Below are positions 3,377-48,434 of a DNA stretch of 64,000 nt, piece by piece. Within the stretch, counting starts at the first letter, position 1; the number at the start of each line of letters is the position of its first letter. The DNA lies in assembly GCA_951804945.1 (NCBI GenBank), contig OX638153.1, positions 26,784,001 to 26,848,000 on the forward strand, written 5' to 3'. Both the position numbers and the translations under genes were made by a program. The notes below the pieces were generated by a model that worked only from the letters and a program-made list of their open reading frames with translations, was not told where the DNA came from and did not search any database. The DNA is from Podarcis cretensis (taxonomy: Eukaryota).

Positions 3377-3460
3377 TTTTCGGGTGACGAGGTTGCCTTC
3401 TTCATCAGTAAACTGTTCTTCTGTAACAGATTCACCAGGAATGTTTTTTGCCTCCTCACC
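3377..3460 (-). CDS. ANK3: ANK3 muscle-type alternative exon ([28 protein letters not shown])
   Basis: 84 nt, phase 0/0, ctttag|GGT ... AAA|gtaatc. [12 protein letters not shown] is the conserved obscurin/titin-binding-related motif of ANK1/2/3. Confidence 0.93.
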
Positions 3461-6490: not shown

Positions 6491-7964
6491 CTGATAAATG
6501 CAGTTTTTAGTACATTTTACCAGCTCATTTAAAAGACAAACATGAATCTGAGCAGGAACAGAGGGGGAAAATGGTTATACCCAACATTAGTTCATCCTGA
6601 AAAACACCATAGGGGGGATGTCTGCAATCTTGCTTTCAGGGTAGGTAATATTTCAGTTAGGAGCATTTTGCCATGTCCACAAGTGAGGTAGGCATTCTGC
6701 ATTCAGAGCTGCCTTAAAAATATTTCAAAATACACCACAGTTTTGTACAGGTATAGCCTGGCATAGCCATAAATGCGTGGCAGGCTACATGCAAACCATA
6801 GTTTACTGACAGGGAGGCACACCCCTGGGGACATGTACTCCCTTCCCACTTCCGGTGCACATTTCCCCCCTCTTGTCCCTTGTTGATCTCAAGTGTGGTT
6901 TTATATTACATCAGCAAACCATTGATTGTATATCAGGGGTTGGGCACAAGACCAGGGTTTCAAATTCTGGTTAAGTGGAGACTCTTGTTTAGGAATGTTC
7001 AGGGCTACAGGGAAGGAGGAAGGGCATGGGAAGGCTCTTGTGGTTGGCTCCTCATTTGCAAACCACGGTTTGCAGAAGCGATACAAAAAGCCAAAAGACT
7101 GAAGAATATTAGCAGAAATAATTCTATGATTCTAAGTAGAAGCCCACAAGGAACTTTCGACAGAGGGTAGAGAAGAGAGTAAAGAGCATTTTAATTTTTT
7201 TGCCTTCCATCTGCTCCTGTGGCTCTCTCAACTGACTGGCGAGAGGATCCTGGAGAGCTTGGCACCACAACCCTAGTCCTTTATGTAGGCTTCCTCAGAG
7301 TCCTCTCTTATGCTGAGTCTATGGACCTGGGTGGCCAGCAGGACTCATGGGGTGCTGGCTTCATGTCTAGAGGGTTCTCCTGATGGGGCACTAGACCTTT
7401 GAGGTCCCTTGACCAGTCTCCAAAATAGGTTTGGGGCTGAGCAAGAGCCTTGATTCCATCACAGTTTCCTTCATTGACCTAACTTTCAGTAGCTGCATGC
7501 TGCTCTCCACTGCCAACAGTGAGCAGCATGCACACACATTGGTTCAGAAAGATTTATTGAGAGTTGGGGTTTTTTAACCCATTTGGGGGCAAGTGCCAGA
7601 TTCTCAGAAGGGACCCTTTGCAGTTTTTTGAGCAGGCTCAAAATCACCCCCATCATTTCTTCCTGCTCCCTCACCACAATCCTGCTTCTCTGCTTTCATT
7701 TCAAGGAAAGCTTAAACCTGGGTTTAAGCGAGGCTTTTTAAGTGGCTGATGAGAGGGATGGAGTTTGCGTAAGAGAGGGGAGATCACTAAACTTTGTCAC
7801 TCTAAACTGAAGTTTCAGCACTGCATGGTTGGCCCTAGCTGGGAAGTTTTTGGGGAGAAATATAAAAGGGAAGCCACAGAGGGAAGTTCATTCTATATTC
7901 ACAATGCTTTAGCTGAATTAAGAATGAAAACTCCCACACAAAGTAAGGCGGATGGCATTTATAC

Positions 7965-8434: not shown

Positions 8435-8593
8435 AGGAGTTCAGGGTGACATATATGGCTAAATATTTTCTTCACAAAAAACCTGTGAGGCTGGTTATGC
8501 TGAGAATGAGAATGAGGAGTTCAGGGTGACATATATGGCTAAGTATTTTCTTCACAAAAAACCTGTGAGGCTGGTTACGCTGAGAATGAGAAT
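8435..8593. repeat. Tandem duplication, two 80-bp units
   Basis: aggagttcagggtgacatatatggctaa...gctgagaatgagaat starts at 8435 and again at 8515, with about two substitutions. Confidence 0.9.
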
Positions 8594-8948: not shown

Positions 8949-9550
8949 CACATGCCAGTATGGCTAATTAGCATTTTACCAGTGCTGGTTTTGATCTTTT
9001 AGCCCTAGCTTATTTCAGGAAGCATATCCCCTTACATAATTTCCCTCCGTACCCAGAGTATTGAGATCAGCTAACAAGACCCTCCTAAAAGTATAATCAC
9101 CTTTGGATTTTGCTTTAGCATCCAGTGCAAATGCAAAAAGAGCAGCGTCGGGGGTTTTTTGTCACTGCTCTGGGACTTCAGTATACCCATCCTCTCTCCA
9201 GGAGGCCTGTGCAACTTTTACTTTACTTTTTTTGAAATTGGAAAAGTGGTCAAATATTCTTCTGTTGCTTTGGGAACTAAGCTTATGTATTTCCTGCTGC
9301 CCATTCTGTTCTGAGCCTGATTTTATTGTGCACCCCCCCCCCCATCTTAACAGTGTTTGGGATTTCACTGTTTTAAATGCCATATTGTAAATCTGCCTTG
9401 ATAATATCAGTGCCTTATAATCTGGATTGCTGCTTCCTTACATAAGCATTATATAGGTACTTCATCTAGAAATACAATGACCATGGGTTTGGGGGGAAAA
9501 GTCATGTGTTTTCAAAATGAGAACACTTGGTTAGTTGAGCACTTTCATAC

Positions 9551-10208
9551 CTGTCATCTAGTCGATCCAGCAGTTCACCGCTTATTCTGCGTCCTGGTGT
9601 TGGCGGCTCCACATTGACGCTGGAGGCCTCACTCTGCCAACCTGTAATTGAAGACAGTTCCTGTTCTGCCTGCTGCACATACTTAAGAATAGACAAGACT
9701 TTTTCTTCTGTCATCTCCTCAGACTCAACTACTTCGTCAAGGTGAATGTCTTCAAACAGAGATTTAAGCTTTTCTTCCGTCATCTCATCAGTACCAGACT
9801 TTTCTCTCTCCTGCTGCTCAGTTCTCACTAAAGTTGGACTAGTCTCTTGGCTTAGCTTTTGTTTTGGTACCTCGGCACAACTACCAAGATAGCGTGGGTA
9901 ATCATTAAAGTCCATTTCATCCAATTGGATCTGGCCTACATCTTTAGATGCTCCTTCTCTAGGCACTGAGAAATCGTGTTTGCCGTCTTCCAGTGAAGTG
10001 TCTTCTTCAGTCACCACTGGAGGTTCTGCTGCTGTATCATCTATGTTTCCCTGTGGAGTTACTAACACGTCACTCAGTCTACTGGGAGTTCTAAGGGGTG
10101 ACTCTATGCTAGAGAAATCGCTAAAGAAATCATCTTGCTGGGAAGGGGTGGGTGGCACGAAGCGCAACCCAGTGGGAGTTTCCAGTTCCACTTGGATGGT
10201 GGGATAAC
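9551..10208 (-). CDS. ANK3: ANK3 post-death-domain exon, long form with acidic insert (GYPTIQVELETP...LLDRLDD); short form 9551..9641
   Basis: 658 nt, phase 1/2, ccatag|GT ... AG|gtatga. Internal acceptor attacag|GTTGG gives the 91-nt short exon (WQSEASS...). Confidence 0.93.
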
Positions 10209-10887
10209 CTATGGAAGACAGCACATTTGGACTGATTGCAATGAAGTATGGAGTGACATATAATCAAGCATGCAGAGTGGCCAGTTAATTATGTAAAATG
10301 TGGAAAATGTATGAAATGGTAACAACACTTTAATTAGGAATGTAATAATGAATGTAATATCCTTAAAGAATGCAACAAAACCAAAGTAGATGAAATGGCT
10401 AATACAGCACAGCTTATTACTATTGGCCTACAGCACACATGGTTGCAATTTTTCAATTACTGGTTTTCCAGTTATTTCAGTAGTATTATATTTCTCTTCT
10501 CAATAGCAAATGGACTGAATCTGGATTGCTGCTTGCTGTCTTTTTATATCAAGAGTGGTATTTTGTGGCAAAATAACTTTTCTGCTTGTATTTGGATTTA
10601 CTCAAAAAGTTTAAATGTAATGAATTATGTTATAAAGCAAGACAGCCAGGTTTTCTTAAAAATTGGTGTACATTTTTATCATCCAATTTCCAAAAGATAA
10701 AACTACTTGGCTTTATACCATTACAAATGTGAAATATCATCTGTAGATACTTCAACTTTAATCACTGCATCATGATAACGCAGTTGTTAGAAATATGGAA
10801 ATGAACCTTAAAGAGGATAGAAAAGTATAGCATATTCTCAGAGACTGTAGTCAAAATCTAAAACAAAAACTACAGGGTAGGGAGGAT

Positions 10888-11006
10888 CTAGATATAAATT
10901 TCGGGAACGGTAAAACTACAGAGATGAGAGGATTGTGATGAATAAGGAGATCTTGGTGATCTTGGAGACTGAGGCGATCTTGGTGACATGGGTACAATCA
11001 GAAACA
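10888..11006 (-). CDS. Candidate ANK3 alternative terminal exon (VFLIVPMSPRSPQSPRSPRSPYSSQSSHLCSFTVPEIYI*)
   Basis: Strong polypyrimidine tract and AG at 11007-11008. In frame with the upstream phase-1 donor at 12498; SP-repeat peptide. No transcript evidence. Confidence 0.45.
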
Positions 11007-11073
11007 CTGATTGAATAAAGAGAGAAAAGAAAAACATAAGCAACAAAAAAGAGAGAACAATAATTATCTAGAA

Positions 11074-11473: not shown

Positions 11474-12497
11474 CTCTGGCAGTTAGACTTGAACATAGAC
11501 AAATGAAATGACAGTGAACTGTAAACCATATTCTCAGAGGTAAATATTAAGTTGATGAGCTGATGAAAGGCTGGGATGGGGAGAGAGATCAGCATTACAT
11601 TGTGCTGCCTGGAGAGCAATGTGCACTAATGTCTCCATGTTCTGCAACTGAATCAACTGAGAGAAAGTTAAAAGGTAGTCTGGTCTTGGTGAGGACAAGA
11701 AGCTTGAGGAAGGTTCAGAGGAGAGGAAGGATAGACAGCAACACAGAGAAGCACATTCTCTTTGTAGAAAAGATACTTGTCTCTGATTAAAAGGCACAAG
11801 CAACATTTCAAGAGAAAACTTCTTAAAATGTCCACAGAATTTAAATTTCTGCAATGCGGTGATTCAGTGACCAAGAATGTTGCTTGGGGATGAATTAAGC
11901 TCATAAGCGCTGCACACAGCCAGAAAATCCTTGCAGAAGGCAGCAAAAACAGCATGTGTTTGAATAAAATAGAAGAAAAAGGGAGACTTTCATAGTGTTT
12001 AGAAGAACATAGCTTACAAAACAAAACAAAAAAGGAAGTATTTGGAAAGCAGCTTAATGTATCTTCAAAGTCAGAATTAGTTTTTAGCACCTGATCAGTA
12101 GTACAGATTCATTTATATATCTATCTGCGCAATAAAAGCCTTTACAGTTGACGAACAAAAATTGAAGTTAAATCTCAGCATAAATCTGGGCATTGATTAG
12201 AGTACCAGAATTTCATTATCCCATTAGGGTAATTTTAGAATGTAAAGAAACAATAAGCAGTTGTAATTTTACCAAAGGGAACAATTTCACAGTAATTTTA
12301 GACTGAGTTCAAATTAAGTTAATGGAGCCAAACAACTCTGAAGTGTTCATTGATACATACCCTGATTTTTTTAATATTTGAGATAAATAAATATATATTT
12401 TATTTGAAACAGTATCATCTTGCATAGTTTATGTTATTAGATGAAAAGACTTTTCTGTGTGGATAAATATTGGTCAAAATGAAACAAATTCAGTTAC

Positions 12498-12641
12498 CAT
12501 CAACAGGATCATGGAAAACATTATTTTCATCTGCAAAGCTTCTGGTGCCTGAAATGTTTCCATAATCAAATATTGGTCCTTCCAACAAAGTTACAATGTC
12601 AATCCGATTGATTTTTGTCAATATAGAGGTTAAGGCATCAG
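12498..12641 (-). CDS. ANK3: ANK3 death-domain exon 3 (DALTSILTKINRIDIVTLLEGPIFDYGN...HDPVD)
   Basis: 144 nt, phase 1/1, ccacag|CT ... GATG|gtaact. Confidence 0.96.
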
Positions 12642-29712: not shown

Positions 29713-29852
29713 NNNNNNNNNNNNNNNNNNNNNNNNNNNNNNNNNNNNNNNNNNNNNNNNNNNNNNNNNNNNNNNNNNNNNNNNNNNNNNNNNNNNNNNN
29801 NNNNNNNNNNNNNNNNNNNNNNNNNNNNNNNNNNNNNNNNNNNNNNNNNNNN
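29713..29852. other. Assembly gap (140 N)
   Basis: Run of N. Confidence 1.
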
Positions 29853-34792: not shown

Positions 34793-35793
34793 CTATTTTC
34801 AATATAGGAAAAAGAGATTCCAAAATCATGGGATATAAGATTCTCAAACATGCAATTTATAGTTACAGGTAGGTAGCCGTGTTGGTCTGCTGTAGTTGAA
34901 ACAAAATAAAAAAAAATCCTTCCAGTAGTACCATACTTTACCTAGATGTTATTTTTCTGTAAAATTTCTGTTGCTGTTATACAGCATAAATGCTACACAA
35001 ATCCAGGATTTTAGGGTAAAATTCAACAAGCCCCAAACTTCAGGTTGTATTCAACTTTTACTCAGCGAAGACCTATTGAATTAATGAACCTAAATTTGTT
35101 ACAGCCATTGTTTTCAATGAGTCTACTCAAAGTTAGCTGAATGCAACCCCTTCTTCTTTTTGGATTTCTTATCAGTTTCAACAATGTCATCTGGTTCACT
35201 GAAATGGGGGACCTAACTAAAATCCAACAACTGCAAGGTGAAAATATCTGTTGTATGTAGGTGGATTTGCTGTAAAAATATGGATTTCATCCAGAATGCC
35301 GCTGTTCCCTGCTTAGCAGATGCTTATATTACAGATCTGAATAAGGTTCACTGGGATGACCAAACGCTAAGGTGGGCAGGATAGGTAAGCTTTTAACAAG
35401 TTACACAGAAGTGGGCATTTTGGCAGTTACAATTTGCCATGCAGGAGGGAGAAGAGCTGCTCCTTTTATTAAGAGGCCAGACTGAACAGCACACTTCTTA
35501 GGAAGTGGTGTACTGTGTAGAGGGGAGCGTGTGGGCAGGTCCTCTGCTCACTGTCCCACTTCTGCCATTCACACATGCTTCCTACACATGTAAGGTTCAA
35601 TGCATGCAGGTAAGAAATGTGGTTGATTTCCTCATTATATCAGGAATTTGTGTTTGTGGGTGGATGGGTATGTTGAACTATAGGCATATAGGCATAATCC
35701 ATCCTTGTGTCTACATGAAGGAATGGTGGGCAGGCTGAAGCTGCAGGCACTCATTTCCCTCAACCTGTTAGGCCAGATCTAGGTAGGTACATC

Positions 35794-37669: not shown

Positions 37670-40600
37670 TTTTATTTATACCCCACCCTCCCCAGCCTGG
37701 GCTCAGGGCGGCTAACTACCAATAATAAAAACAAGTTGATTAAAATACAATTTAAAAGATTAAGATACAACATTAAAACAATTAGGGAGCAATCTCTTCA
37801 TAGGAGGAGAAAGGAAAAGGAAAGGGAAAGGGGGGGGAGGGAATCAAACTGATTCTGAGCCAAAGGCCAGGTGGAACAACTCTGTCTTACAGGCCCTGCG
37901 GAAAGAGATCAGATCCCGCAGGGCCCTGGTCTCAAGAGAAGAGACAGAGCATTCCACCAGGCCGGGGCCAGTGTTGAGAAGGCCCTGGCTCTGGTTGAGG
38001 CTAATCTAACTTCCTTAGGGCCCGGGACCTCTAGGGTGTTGCTATATGTGGACCTTAAGGTCCTCCGTGGGGCATACCAGGAGAGGCGGTCCCGTAGGTA
38101 CAAGGGTCCTAGGCCGTGAAGGGCTTTAAAAGTCAAAACCAGCACCTTAAATCTGACCCTGTACTCCACCGGGAGCCAATGCAGCTGGAAAAGCACTGGG
38201 TGAATATGCTCCCATGGCAAAGACCCTGTGAGGAGCCTCACTGCAGCATTCTGCACCCGCTGGAGTTTCTGGGACAGCTTCAAGGGCAGCCCCGTGTAGA
38301 GCGAATTACAGTAGTCAAGCCTGGAGGTGACCATCACATGGATCACTGTGGCCAGGTCGGGGCGGGAAAGGTAAGGGACCAACAGTTTGATGCGGCGTAG
38401 GTGGAAAAATGTCGCCTTGGCTGTTGCTGTAACTTGCGCCTCCATGGAAAGGGAGGCGTCAAGGATTACACCCAAACTCTTAACGGAAGGCAATTGCACT
38501 AATTGGGGCCTCGCAAGAGAAGGGAGTTGGTCCCTTATCCCCATACCATCCCGACCCAGGCAGAGGACCTCTGTCTTTGAAGGATTTAGTTTCAATCGGC
38601 TCCCACGAAACCATCCAGCCACAGCTTCCAAACATCTGGTCAGTGTGTCAGGGATTGAGTTGGTATGGCCATCCATCAGCAGATAGAGCTGAGTGTCATC
38701 AGCATATTAGTGACAACCCAGCCCAAAGCTCTGGATAATCTGGGCAAGGGGGTGCATAAAGATGTTAAAAAGCATCGGGGAGAGGATTGCGCCCTGTGGC
38801 ACTCCACACACCAAGGGGTGGTGCGATGACAACTCCCTCCCTAGTGCCACCCTCTGTCCCCGACCAGAGATAAAGGAGCACAGCCATTTATGGGCTATGC
38901 CCTGTATCCCCACATCGGCGAGGTGGTGGTCCAAAAGATCATGATCGACCATGTCAGCAGTCCCGACCCTCCTCCAGAAACCTACCAAGCTGTTCAGCAA
39001 CTGCTCTCTCAATTACCTTAGCCAGATATGGGAGATTTGAAACTGGGCAGTAATTGGATAGATCTAAAGGATCTAGTGAAGTTTTATTTAAGAGCGGATA
39101 CACCATTGCTCCCCTGGGAATGTCCCTGTGTTAAGGGACAAATTGATAGTTTAAACCAGAGGGGTCCGCGCGATATCTGGGCACGCCCTAATCAGCCAAG
39201 ACGGGCACGGATCGAGGAGGCAGGTGGTTAGCCTACCAGCTTGGAGGAGTCTATCCACATCTGCAGGGAGTATCTGATCGAAATGTTCTAACACTGGACC
39301 CGAAGACAGTCGAGGGCCTCCAGTTCTGTCACTGTATCTAAATTGGCAGGGAGGTCACGGCGGAGCAACAGGACTTTCTCTGCAAAAAAGTTTGCAAGTG
39401 CCTCACAGCTGTGGGTTGAATTTGTGCTTAAATTTGGTTGTCCTCCTAAGGACGTTATTGACCTAATTATTCTAAAAAGTTGTGCTGGGCAAGAGCCAGC
39501 GGATGCAATGGAAGCTGCGAAGTGAGATTTCTTAGCAGCTTTCATAGCCATCTCGTAGGCTTTCATAAGCGTCCTATAAGATGTTCTTGAAGCTCCGTCA
39601 CGAGTCCATCGCCATACTCACTCTAGCTGTCTGAGATCCCGCTTCATTTTCCGGAGCTCCTCGGTAAACCAAGGGGCCCTGTTTCAACGGGGTCGCAGAG
39701 GGCGCTTGGGCGCAATCTCATCGATGGCCGCCAAGAACCGGTTATTTCAGTCCTTGACAAGGTCATCTAATGAGTCACCAGGAGGAGCAGGGTCCCTCAA
39801 AGCCAGACGGAATCTATCAGGATCCACCAGTCTTCGCGGGCGAGCCCAAATAGGCTTGCCACCCAAGCGGGGGGGGGGGAGCGGGAAATCAATCTTGGCT
39901 TTCGGAGCGTAGCGATCAGACCATGGCACTTCCACAGGGGGTAGCATGATCACATCTATGCCAGCACCAAAGATAAAATCCAGCGTGTGGCCTGCTTGAT
40001 GAGTCGGGCCCATAACAAACTGGGAGAGCCCCAGTGTTGCCATAGAAGTCACTAGGTCCAGAGCCTGTGAGGAGGGGGTGGCATCGGCATGGATGTTGAA
40101 GTCTCCCAAAAGCAATAGGTTTGGGAACTCCAAGGCCCAACCTGCCGCCACCTCCAGCAGGTCTGACAGGGTGGCTGCTGGTGCGCTAGGTGGTCGGTAC
40201 ACCAGCCAGACAGCCAAGTTCTCCTTGGTGCCCCACACACCACCAACACATTCAATGCCAGAGATCGCTAGTGGTGGCAGAACCCTGAAAAAGCAATCCT
40301 CCCGGATCAACAACGCTGCTCCTCCCCCCGACCCACAGTCCGCGATTGATGGAGGACAGAGAAACCTGGAGGTGTTATCTCATGTAGGGAGATTACTTCG
40401 CCTTCCCGTACCCAGGTCTCTGTCATGCAAGCCAGGTCAATCCCCTGCGAGACAAAAAAAGTCACGCATGGTGGCGGTTTTATTGCCTATGGACCTGGCA
40501 TTGCACAACACCAATGACGGAGGTGGGTAATCCCTGCTCGCCCTACCCTTGTCCCTTGGGACGGGGCATAGATTGGAGGGGGTTCGAGCATCACTGCATC

Positions 40601-40825
40601 TCAAAACCCTTCTCAGATAGTGATATTTAGCCCCACCGCCATTCTTCCCTAGCCCTTCAATAGTGGGAATCCCAGACCCCATACTAGCCTCCCCAATAGA
40701 GGGGTAAGATCTCCTCAATAACAAGTCATCTCTGGGACAGGACTCTTGGGTCAGAATGTTATGGGGAAGAGGTGAAGGTTTGATAGGGTAATTATCCCTA
40801 GAAGATAAAACCCAACCAACCGCAC
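37626..40825 (-). mobile_element. L2-clade LINE, ORF2 (APE endonuclease + RT) disrupted, with (ATT)n tail
   Basis: Fragments LCNARSIGNK, VYRPP...LLGDFNIH...GHTLD, GVPQGAILSPMLFNIF, LKLNPSKTE, SRLDYCNSL and LHWLPV. Frameshifts and an internal RT deletion near 38960; 3' end AATAAA + (ATT)n. Confidence 0.9.
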
Positions 40826-42242
40826 CGAGCAAAGAAAATGTTCAGTTCCTCTGCCAATGAGGCATCAGTCTTAACCATGTTCCTTGTATTGCTCTTGTAG
40901 TTGGTTAGGTGCTGCAGTCGTTGCCACACTTGTTTCATGATGTTATTGGCTAAATAATTTTCCACCTTAAGCTTATACTGTTGTTTTGCTGCCTTAATGC
41001 CTTTTTTTGAGATTTATTCTCGCCTCTCTGTATATGTCTATATTCCCTGTCTTAAAGGCAGAATCCTGGATTTTCTTACTTCAGCAGTCATCCATGGTTT
41101 ACAGTTCCCATAGAGTCTAATGCATCTCTGCGATGTTACATTATCGATGCACACTTTAATATAGGAGAGTATAGCATCTGTGTATCTATGCAGATCTTGC
41201 TGTTCAAACACACTCCAATCAGTGCTCTCAAAACAATCCTGGAGCTGACTAAGAGCACCCTCTGGCCAAGTTCTAACTGTTTTTATAACTGACTGAATTC
41301 TTCTCCTGAGAGGGATGTATTTCGGACATAGAAAAACTGAAGAATGGTCGGATGAGCCTAAGTGGGGGAAGGGGATTGCCCTGTATGCCTGTTTCAAATT
41401 GGAATACGCGAGATCTAGAACACTCTGTCCTCTAGTGGGAAATTTCACAAACTGTTCAAACTTAGGAAAAACCGTCTTTAGGCAGGCTTGATTGAAGTCC
41501 CCTGCCACAACAAGGGCGCCCTCTGGGGGGATTTGCTGCTGCTCGGAGATGACGTCATATAGCTTAGAAAGTGCCGCATTGACATTAGCATCGGATGGAA
41601 TATAAACAGCTATAATAATTATGACAGTTACTTCTCTAGGCAAATAAAATGGCCGACATGTAACTGCCATCAATTCTAGATCTGGGGAGCAATGCGTGTA
41701 AGCTACTTTGCTGTTAACGCACCAACCATTGTGTATGTAAATACAGACTCCCCCGCCCCTAGCTTTACCAGAATCACTGTTTCTATCAGAGCGATAAATT
41801 ATTCGATTTATCAGCTCAACTGCCGCATCTGGTACTGCTGAATGTAGCCAAGTTTCAGTAATAATTACCACACAGTTCTCACAAAGAAGTTTGTTTGCTG
41901 CCATCAGTAACTGTAATTCGTCAATTTTGTGGGTGAGAGATCTGGTGTTGGTCAAGAAGACGCTTGGCAGTGCTGGTCTCGTGGGTCTTTTTCGAAGCCG
42001 GGTTAACAGACCAGCTCTGCAACCACGTTTTTGCTTTCGCTCTTTTCTCTTTCGCTTCTTTCGGCACTTCCCCCTCCCGTCGACGATCCATAGAGATCCT
42101 GGAGGTTTGGTATACAGTGGGACCTTTGAAACTCTCTAGTTATCTCTCTTTTTCTTGTGAGCCCAATGTTTACCAGTTTTGTGCGTGAGTAGGTGAGGTA
42201 TTGGGGGCTCAGAGCCGCAGCGTATGAACGTGCCGCCATCTT
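40826..42242 (-). mobile_element. Rex1/Babar-clade LINE, 5' half (leader + APE endonuclease; RT absent)
   Basis: Starts AAGATGGCGGC. Basic leader RKQKRGCRAG...LPSVFLTNTRSL, then TETWL, RGGGVCIYI..WC, AGDFNQA, SDH, LQDCF, KPW; ends DASLAEELNIFFAR. Clade call is from remembered motifs. Confidence 0.8.
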
Positions 42243-47751: not shown

Positions 47752-48434
47752 CTGAATAACATCCATGCAGCAGGAAGAAAAACAAGAGGGGAAATTAGGA
47801 ACAAACTGTCATTCCCGACAGAACTTTCTACTGGGGACCATGTATGGTAATGAACAAAATTTATCATCATATATAAATTTATGTACTCCCATATCATAGT
47901 GGATTGTTTCCCCTAATGTTAGCTTTGGAAAAGAAAAAGTCTGCTGTTGGCATTTGTGTTAGTATACGGCTCAGAGTAGCTGCTACAAAATTCACATTCA
48001 GCTGCACATTCTTCTCTTGGTAAATGTTTGCCGCTCTTGAGGATGAGCGGATAGTTTGTACAGAGTACTCCTTTAGAAATCAATGGCATTCCATAATCAC
48101 TGGGTGCTGGGCATATAATTCAGCAGTGCTCCCAACATCCTGCCTTTGTATATCTGCATGAATCAAGAATAAGAGAGAAGGTTTTGGGTCCCCCCCCTCA
48201 TCCCTTAAACATAATATATTACCATAGGAAAAATTATTCATGATACCATAGAGAATTTGGCCTAAGATAAAATTACAGTCCTGTGCTTACCTAGCAAAAG
48301 GAGTGGAAGCCTACCTCCAATCCTCAAGTTATTTCAATTTTAAAAGACCCAACAACTTAGATCCATATGGTAAAGCAAAGCAAAACTATAGATGCAAAAT
48401 GGCAGCCAATAATACGATTCACAGAACAACTCAC

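Follow-up and report, generated by a model that had tools for sequence, protein, structure and literature searches.

Within the window, the 64,000-nucleotide stretch of DNA analysed here, positions 11006–10888 on the minus strand probably form a genuine alternative last exon of ANK3 that is conserved and protein-coding. The 64-kb window corresponds to the 3′ half of vertebrate ANK3 (ankyrin-G), with the gene on the minus strand. Our preferred reading, to which we assign a probability of about 0.65, is that this segment is a protein-coding last exon, joined to exon 43 by splicing and with its poly(A) site within intron 43. The anatomy of the element and its coding-type conservation are observed directly, and from them we infer its splicing, its 3′ end, its translation and the existence of a partner for the encoded tail.

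According to the preferred reading, exon 43 would at times be spliced to position 11006, and the message would be cleaved after an ATTAAA hexamer. The predicted isoform would retain the ankyrin repeats, the spectrin-binding region and the death domain and would lose exons 44–50, with a 39-residue tail in place of the C-terminal residues that they encode (about 180 by the exon 44′ route and about 370 by that of exon 44). The lost part would include the likely autoinhibitory segment AI-a and the muscle, obscurin-binding exons 46–49. Loss of AI-a would not be unique to the tail isoform, because exon 44′ isoforms already lack this segment. As a neuropsychiatric and cardiac gene ANK3 is under intensive study, and the lists of its isoforms were made with primers placed in the known last exon. 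An isoform ending in a conserved coding exon of intron 43 would have no regular tail, and C-terminal antibodies and 3′-UTR probes would miss it. Should the exon be missing from mammals, or be annotated already, its significance is modest.

The ANK3 locus and the setting of the candidate exon

To place the candidate, ANK3 exons were assigned by comparing their lengths and terminal 5 nt with the mouse exon table in the available part of PMC4449188. The identity of the gene is supported by exon 42, which matched the solved ankyrin-3 chain 4o6x_A with E=1e-22, better than it matched ankyrin-1 and ankyrin-2. Exon 43 (12498–12641, minus strand; 144 nt, mouse numbering of PMC4449188) agrees with the mouse table in length and 5-nt ends and encodes the last part of the death domain. 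The presumed partner of the candidate acceptor is the phase-1 donor of exon 43, ATG|gtaact after 12498 (minus strand). Intron 43 (12497–10209, minus strand), which holds the candidate, separates this exon from the competing exon 44 (9551–10208 in the long form; the short form 44′ starts at 9641; minus strand). Within exon 44, a PPVV segment near 10032–9990 (minus strand) was placed by its PPIV-like motif and is likely the autoinhibitory AI-a, the PPIV-containing segment described in the accessible text of PMC5779224. Exon 50 is located at 958 (minus strand).

Splice and polyadenylation signals

The acceptor AG lies at 11008–11007, the exon starts at 11006 and the stop codon TAG is at 10890–10888, all on the minus strand. 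The coding part (10888–11006) has 119 bases and gives 39 residues followed by TAG; spliced from the phase-1 donor after 12498, the candidate frame reads VFLIVPMSPRSPQSPRSPRSPYSSQSSHLCSFTVPEIYI over its 39 codons. These coordinates had been proposed by a first-pass annotation of the sequence, and acceptor, frame and stop all hold, in phase with the 12498 donor, on re-reading. In the window the frame is closed by a stop near 11070, ahead of the acceptor, and entry into it would therefore be by splicing. The frame is thus continuous with exon 43 and has its own stop, as expected of an alternative last exon, and the same end is shared by all five coding-frame ORFs that we recovered from other genomes.

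The polypyrimidine tract and acceptor CAG occupy 11007–11060 (minus strand), with an AG-free zone of 59 nt, and the AG is kept in the three-frame inference described below. The tract, which had been listed among the strongest in the window, does rank there: 40 of 48 positions are pyrimidines, a count above that of all 19 mapped ANK3 acceptors (21–38) and reached by 5 of the 3469 intronic AGs. A weight matrix built from the mapped ANK3 acceptors gave the site 7.8 bits, the leave-one-out median of the true acceptors, which is the normal strength that a 3′ splice site of an alternative last exon should have. Because 80 of 3469 intronic AGs score at least 7.8 bits, and four others within intron 43 are as high or higher, we regard the candidate acceptor as good but unexceptional.

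The first-pass annotation saw no good donor downstream of the stop, and this is only partly true. Two weak donors, AAG|gttcat after 10807 (5.4 bits) and ATG|gtataa at 10713–10721, after 10719 (5.3 bits; both minus strand), outscore 6 of 18 real donors, and the second would make a stop-carrying cassette. The ATTAAA reported about 125 nt past the stop, a candidate poly(A) signal, is indeed present at 10757–10762 (minus strand), with TGTA upstream at 10920 and 10874 and U/GU-rich sequence downstream. It carries little weight as evidence, since AATAAA or ATTAAA occurs in 1039 of 4982 intronic 150-nt intervals (21%).

Conservation of the frame in other genomes

Protein searches, a complete scan of the representatives of clusters and look-ups of cluster members together returned 23 unnamed proteins (P0002–P0024). 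Five were dropped: P0007 and P0008 are unrelated low-complexity sequences, and P0004, P0013 and P0017 end before the exon. The remaining 18, which cross the exon, are spurious gene calls on orthologous vertebrate intron DNA, apparently with TGA read as Trp. Because these calls were made in alternative frames, a codon-position test was possible without the DNA itself.

None of the 18 exon-crossing ORFs contains an indel (16 span the full length and 2 reach codon 29), and by their upstream sequence they represent about six lineages. These may be birds, to judge by the shorter intron and by the 87 and 34 contigs with JGI sources in one lineage. The five ORFs in the coding frame are identical to the window at 31–33 of 39 residues (79–85%) and all end at residue 39, whereas the 11 ORFs in frame +1 are identical at 21–26 of 39 and the two in frame +2 at 20–24 of 29. 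In a neutral simulation, a gap of at least 7 between the coding and +1 frames appeared in 0.4–1.7% of 20,000 runs per rate. The coding exon that had been postulated in the phase of the death-domain donor keeps its acceptor, frame and stop in other genomes, where substitutions favour silent sites; lack of conservation, which would have spoken against it, is not what we found.

Orthology of the ORFs is backed by their upstream parts, because these match positions 11806–11590, also in intron 43, with E values as low as 5e-10 for a search of 64 kb. This second conserved block of intron 43 (11590–11806, minus strand) contains an AG at 11703 of 7.7 bits, and tblastn of the orthologous ORFs matches it in three different frames. 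Frameshifts between lineages are tolerated in the block, with up to 63% apparent protein identity in spite of the lack of a shared frame, and it is likely non-coding. Indels occur in this neighbouring block and just past the stop, unlike in the candidate exon. An ASFPHQDQT-like phase-1 sequence was also seen in the block in several lineages; the window stops after 11 codons of it, and other lineages are frameshifted. Overall, the block suggests a regulatory element or a decayed exon.

Codon-level evidence for a coding sequence

Three records with identical first 58 residues, which we assumed to come from one lineage, read the exon in all three frames. Together they fix 114 of 114 bases if W stands for TGA, and they provide one pairwise comparison against the window. 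The 16 differences were distributed over the three codon positions as 2/38, 4/38 and 10/38 (p=0.010); 10 were silent and 6 were replacements, and dN/dS was 0.16 (p=0.0009). The inferred DNA is 86.7% identical to the window with no indels, in contrast to the unconserved, intron-like sequence that characterizes cryptic last exons. The dN/dS value reflects the coding-type constraint expected of an alternative last exon, and it differs from the absence of constraint on the encoded peptide that a poison cassette would show, although the signal was weaker in tests confined to the wrong frames. Four control frames gave dN/dS values of 1.65–3.75, and the wobble-sharing antisense frame gave 0.17 but carries four stops in the window. 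An antisense gene was ruled out, because two of the three plus-strand frames contain stops, the wobble-sharing frame among them, and the others have dN/dS above 1.

The wrong-frame-only ORFs, analysed over codons 2–30 and free of coding-frame ascertainment, showed a third-position excess that was not significant (p=0.25 and p=0.053); for frame +1 alone the values were p=0.23, 0.19 and 0.04. The differences are also unevenly placed along the exon, with 1 in the 60 bases of codons 1–20 and 15 in codons 21–39. The low count in codons 1–20 indicates constraint at the DNA or RNA level there. Constraint up to the last residue, as judged from these comparisons, favours a translated last exon over a poison cassette.

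Alternative explanations

One alternative retains a real coding last exon but assigns it mainly to short or tissue-restricted transcripts (for example, those with the exon 25 start or the giant exon) or to a more distal poly(A) site, and the product may already be a minor predicted RefSeq or Ensembl isoform. We consider this unlikely. It is consistent with further candidate poly(A) signals at 10334 (ATTAAA) and 10602 (AGTAAA), and with the many truncated isoforms made by ANK3, which according to the available text of PMC2120834 include AnkG119 with its 5-kD regulatory domain. AnkG119 resembles the predicted isoform in its very short C-terminal domain of 5 kD, but it is without part of the ankyrin repeats, unlike the candidate. 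Four tail peptides, searched as text, had no occurrences in the AnkG119-related papers covered, and no link between the candidate tail and AnkG119 was found there. AnkG119 reportedly truncates before the death domain. Against a known minor isoform, no named protein of 71–2000 aa in one protein collection carries the tail; this blank is weak, since clusters formed at 90% identity may conceal isoforms.

An explanation that we judge quite improbable is a poison cassette, in which use of the candidate acceptor together with the donor after 10807 or that after 10719 would leave the stop about 80 or 170 nt ahead of the following junction, and nonsense-mediated decay (NMD) of the transcript would tune the dose of ankyrin-G. 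The strength of the two downstream donors, the near-invariant DNA of codons 1–20 and the weak poly(A) evidence all agree with such a cassette, but a silent-site excess that continues to the last codon is unexpected for a degraded message. Moreover, nanopore data from human and mouse brain with 17,000–160,000 reads per library (Tables S3/S4 of PMC13646255, in the portion available) show no cassette that follows the 144-nt exon and precedes region 9, a comparison in which NMD was not blocked and which assumes that the element is present in mammals.

It is very unlikely that the segment is a conserved non-coding intronic element (an enhancer or a regulator of splicing) that no spliced transcript includes and whose open frame is incidental: the conserved block 600 nt upstream, with its high apparent protein identity, the 17% of intronic AGs that open at least 38 codons in the candidate's phase, the non-significant wrong-frame-only tests and the invariant first half would fit such an element, but the 18 indel-free ORFs, the common stop and the codon-periodic changes would not, and neither would the fold z of 0.40, which gives the candidate no RNA structure signal, or the lack of any Rfam match. 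Among the 25 listed of 42 inverted pairs, none gave convincing long-range pairing.

Composition and constraint of the predicted tail

In the preferred reading of a translated last exon, the tail is likely a motif platform, in which a constrained hydrophobic end, TVPEI-x-I, would bind a partner and an adjoining P-x-S-P array could be phosphorylated by proline-directed kinases, the array being flanked by two invariant hydrophobic segments. The array consists of five 9-nt units, SPR-SPQ-SPR-SPR-SPY (10942–10986, minus strand), with each serine within P-x-S-P, an ERK-type context. Five S/T-P sites in a stop-terminated tail of 39 aa were found in 2 of 771 non-exonic tails, namely the candidate itself and one tail antisense to the giant exon. 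The repeat does vary at wobble positions (7 of 11 deviations fall at third positions, p=0.04), which the first-pass annotation took as a sign of protein-level constraint, but as an argument this variation is weak alone and partly circular. A simple DNA repeat was ruled out by the low TRF score of 39 (70% matches) and by the conservation.

The proposal of five proline-directed kinase sites was borne out in part. Single-lineage replacements in the repeat comprise P12H (P0006, P0009), P18A (P0006), P15S (P0012) and R19K (P0014), and the first three of these changes lose prolines. The ends of the tail are firmer, with LIVPMSPRS and TVPEI-x-I unchanged across lineages. The C-terminal FTVPEIYI (10891–10914, minus strand), which resembles both the calcineurin composite LxVPxIxIT and a class II PDZ ligand, is the best-constrained segment: T33, V34, P35 and I37 carry silent changes in all three distinct frame +1 segments, Y38F is the sole replacement, and F32 and I39 are also silently changed in two lineages. 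Two further apparent changes, Y38>* and I39L, were artefacts of minimum-change filling in one-frame runs, since the three frames together give Y38F and I39. Judged by these substitutions, constraint is clearest at the end, TVPEI-x-I, and not on the five SP sites.

Possible partners of the tail

The free end of the tail has the hydrophobic, class II PDZ-like character that had been attributed to it, with I-Y-I or I-F-I in the window and in all five coding-frame ORFs. Class II PDZ ligands have the form hydrophobic-x-hydrophobic at a free C-terminus. We take [F/Y]LIV near the junction to be readable as a LIR-like motif as well, which illustrates how easily short motifs match.

The tail also resembles known calcineurin dockers. 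The junction D-V-[F/Y]-L-I-V-P is similar to DQYLAVP of NFATc1 (available text of PMC5156906) but has a valine at the polar −2 position, and the end [F/L]TVPEI[Y/F]I is similar to LDVPDIIIT of calcimembrin (available text of PMC12612047) but the chain ends before the sixth PxIxIT residue; in the candidate, as in such dockers, the two motifs flank serine-proline sites. The leucine of the composite, [F/L]TVPEI, is found only in P0006 and P0009. The loose definition L.[ILV]P, as given in the available part of 10.1101/632547, is matched by the LIVP that is invariant in 5 of 5 coding-frame ORFs, and it is also matched by 53 of 771 null tails. The strict LxVP definition [NQDESRTH]-[YTDFILV]-L-x-V-P, as given in PMC5156906, fails at the valine at −2, and the six-residue PxIxIT definition P[^PG][FILV][^PG][FILV][^PG] fails because PEIYI or PEIFI fills five positions and is followed by the stop. 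The loose composite LxVPxIxI occurs 13 times in 127,996 six-frame codons, and the candidate alone is flush with a stop. Loose LxVP and five-residue PxIxI occur together in 14 of 771 null tails, and 2 of 771, the candidate included, have LxVP and a PxIxI at the terminus. Most matches to calcineurin consensus motifs do not bind, as stated in the accessible part of 10.1101/632547. Since the strict definitions fail, calcineurin docking by the tail is a lead only. A likeness to the PxIxIT motifs of yeast Slm1/Slm2 was not confirmed (0 occurrences) and was dropped.

Calcineurin as the preferred partner of the TVPEI-x-I end is possible but doubtful, and a class II PDZ domain would be about as likely. 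The fullest version of the calcineurin reading, which we consider unlikely, is an overlooked amniote ankyrin-G isoform that lacks AI-a and carries a calcineurin-docking module (LxVP, five SP sites and terminal LxVPxIxI), by which the axon-initial-segment scaffold would be a direct anchor and substrate of a calcium-controlled phosphatase. If the tail does dock calcineurin, it would connect ankyrin-G directly with the calcineurin-dependent remodelling of axon initial segments, which is the topic of PMC4646840, PMC10881073 and PMC7031317. Calcineurin is not mentioned in a 2025 review of ankyrin modifications (PMC12202978; term count 0).

Relation to known isoforms and to database content

Known C-terminal splicing of ANK3, as presented in the available sections of PMC4449188 and PMC13646255, comprises long, short and medial forms of exon 44 and the muscle exons 46–49. 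It shares with the candidate the exon 43 donor, the phase, the choice point and an altered regulatory tail; the known forms in these sections all run on to exons 45 and 50, whereas the candidate alone ends within intron 43. An exon in intron 43 is absent from the human and mouse exon catalogues in the same sections of the two papers, whose primers sit in known exons, and the nanopore study PMC13646255 keeps only reads with the last-exon reverse primer. Both catalogues are therefore blind to an earlier last exon. The "region 8" described in the available part of PMC13646255 was ruled out as the candidate, as the region 8 probe matches the giant exon.

Cryptic last exons, as described in the available text of 10.64898/2026.01.30.702498, resemble the candidate in having an intronic acceptor, their own stop, a poly(A) signal and a truncated protein with a new end. 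However, they are as unconserved as introns, whereas the candidate is conserved, as conventional alternative last exons are. The main text of that paper, in the portion available, does not name ANK3.

Our literature searches found no papers on the candidate exon or its peptide. The protein search at 22–70 aa gave no candidate, a PDB search with the tail returned collagen-like noise only, and the ESM Atlas held no usable match to the tail. An exact degenerate pattern had 9 matches in JGI metagenome contigs, none of them orthologous, a blank that is uninformative because the JGI-sourced proteins P0021 and P0022 carry the exon.

Other features of the window

Elsewhere in the 3′ part of the gene, the muscle-type exons 48 and 49, which form the obscurin-binding insert, are present at 3460–3377 and 3242–3183 (minus strand), and exon 49 has 60 nt. 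A length search of the window found neither exon 46 nor exon 47. Reading through the exon 44 donor at 9550–9502 (minus strand) gives RYESAQLTKCSHFENT and a stop, followed about 180 nt later by an AATAAA at about 9327, an arrangement that may represent a composite last exon. An 80-nt tandem duplication with two copies 97% identical lies at 8435–8593, immediately upstream of the acceptor of exon 45. A strong acceptor-like site at 6547–6430 (minus strand) is followed by a frame that reads ...EYSESDSDSDIEIQSDSSSDE across a TCACTG repeat and is perhaps a transposon fragment.

Five intronic AGs with 10–15 bits, at 34889, 48153, 51236, 28158 and 23723 (minus strand), have no mapped exon, and those at 48153 and 28158 do not correspond to the mouse alternative exons of 99 nt and 27 nt. 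A run of 140 N occupies 29713–29852 in intron 38. The introns around exons 32–33 contain broken reverse-transcriptase/endonuclease ORFs (37909–42135, minus strand), probably of LINE type.
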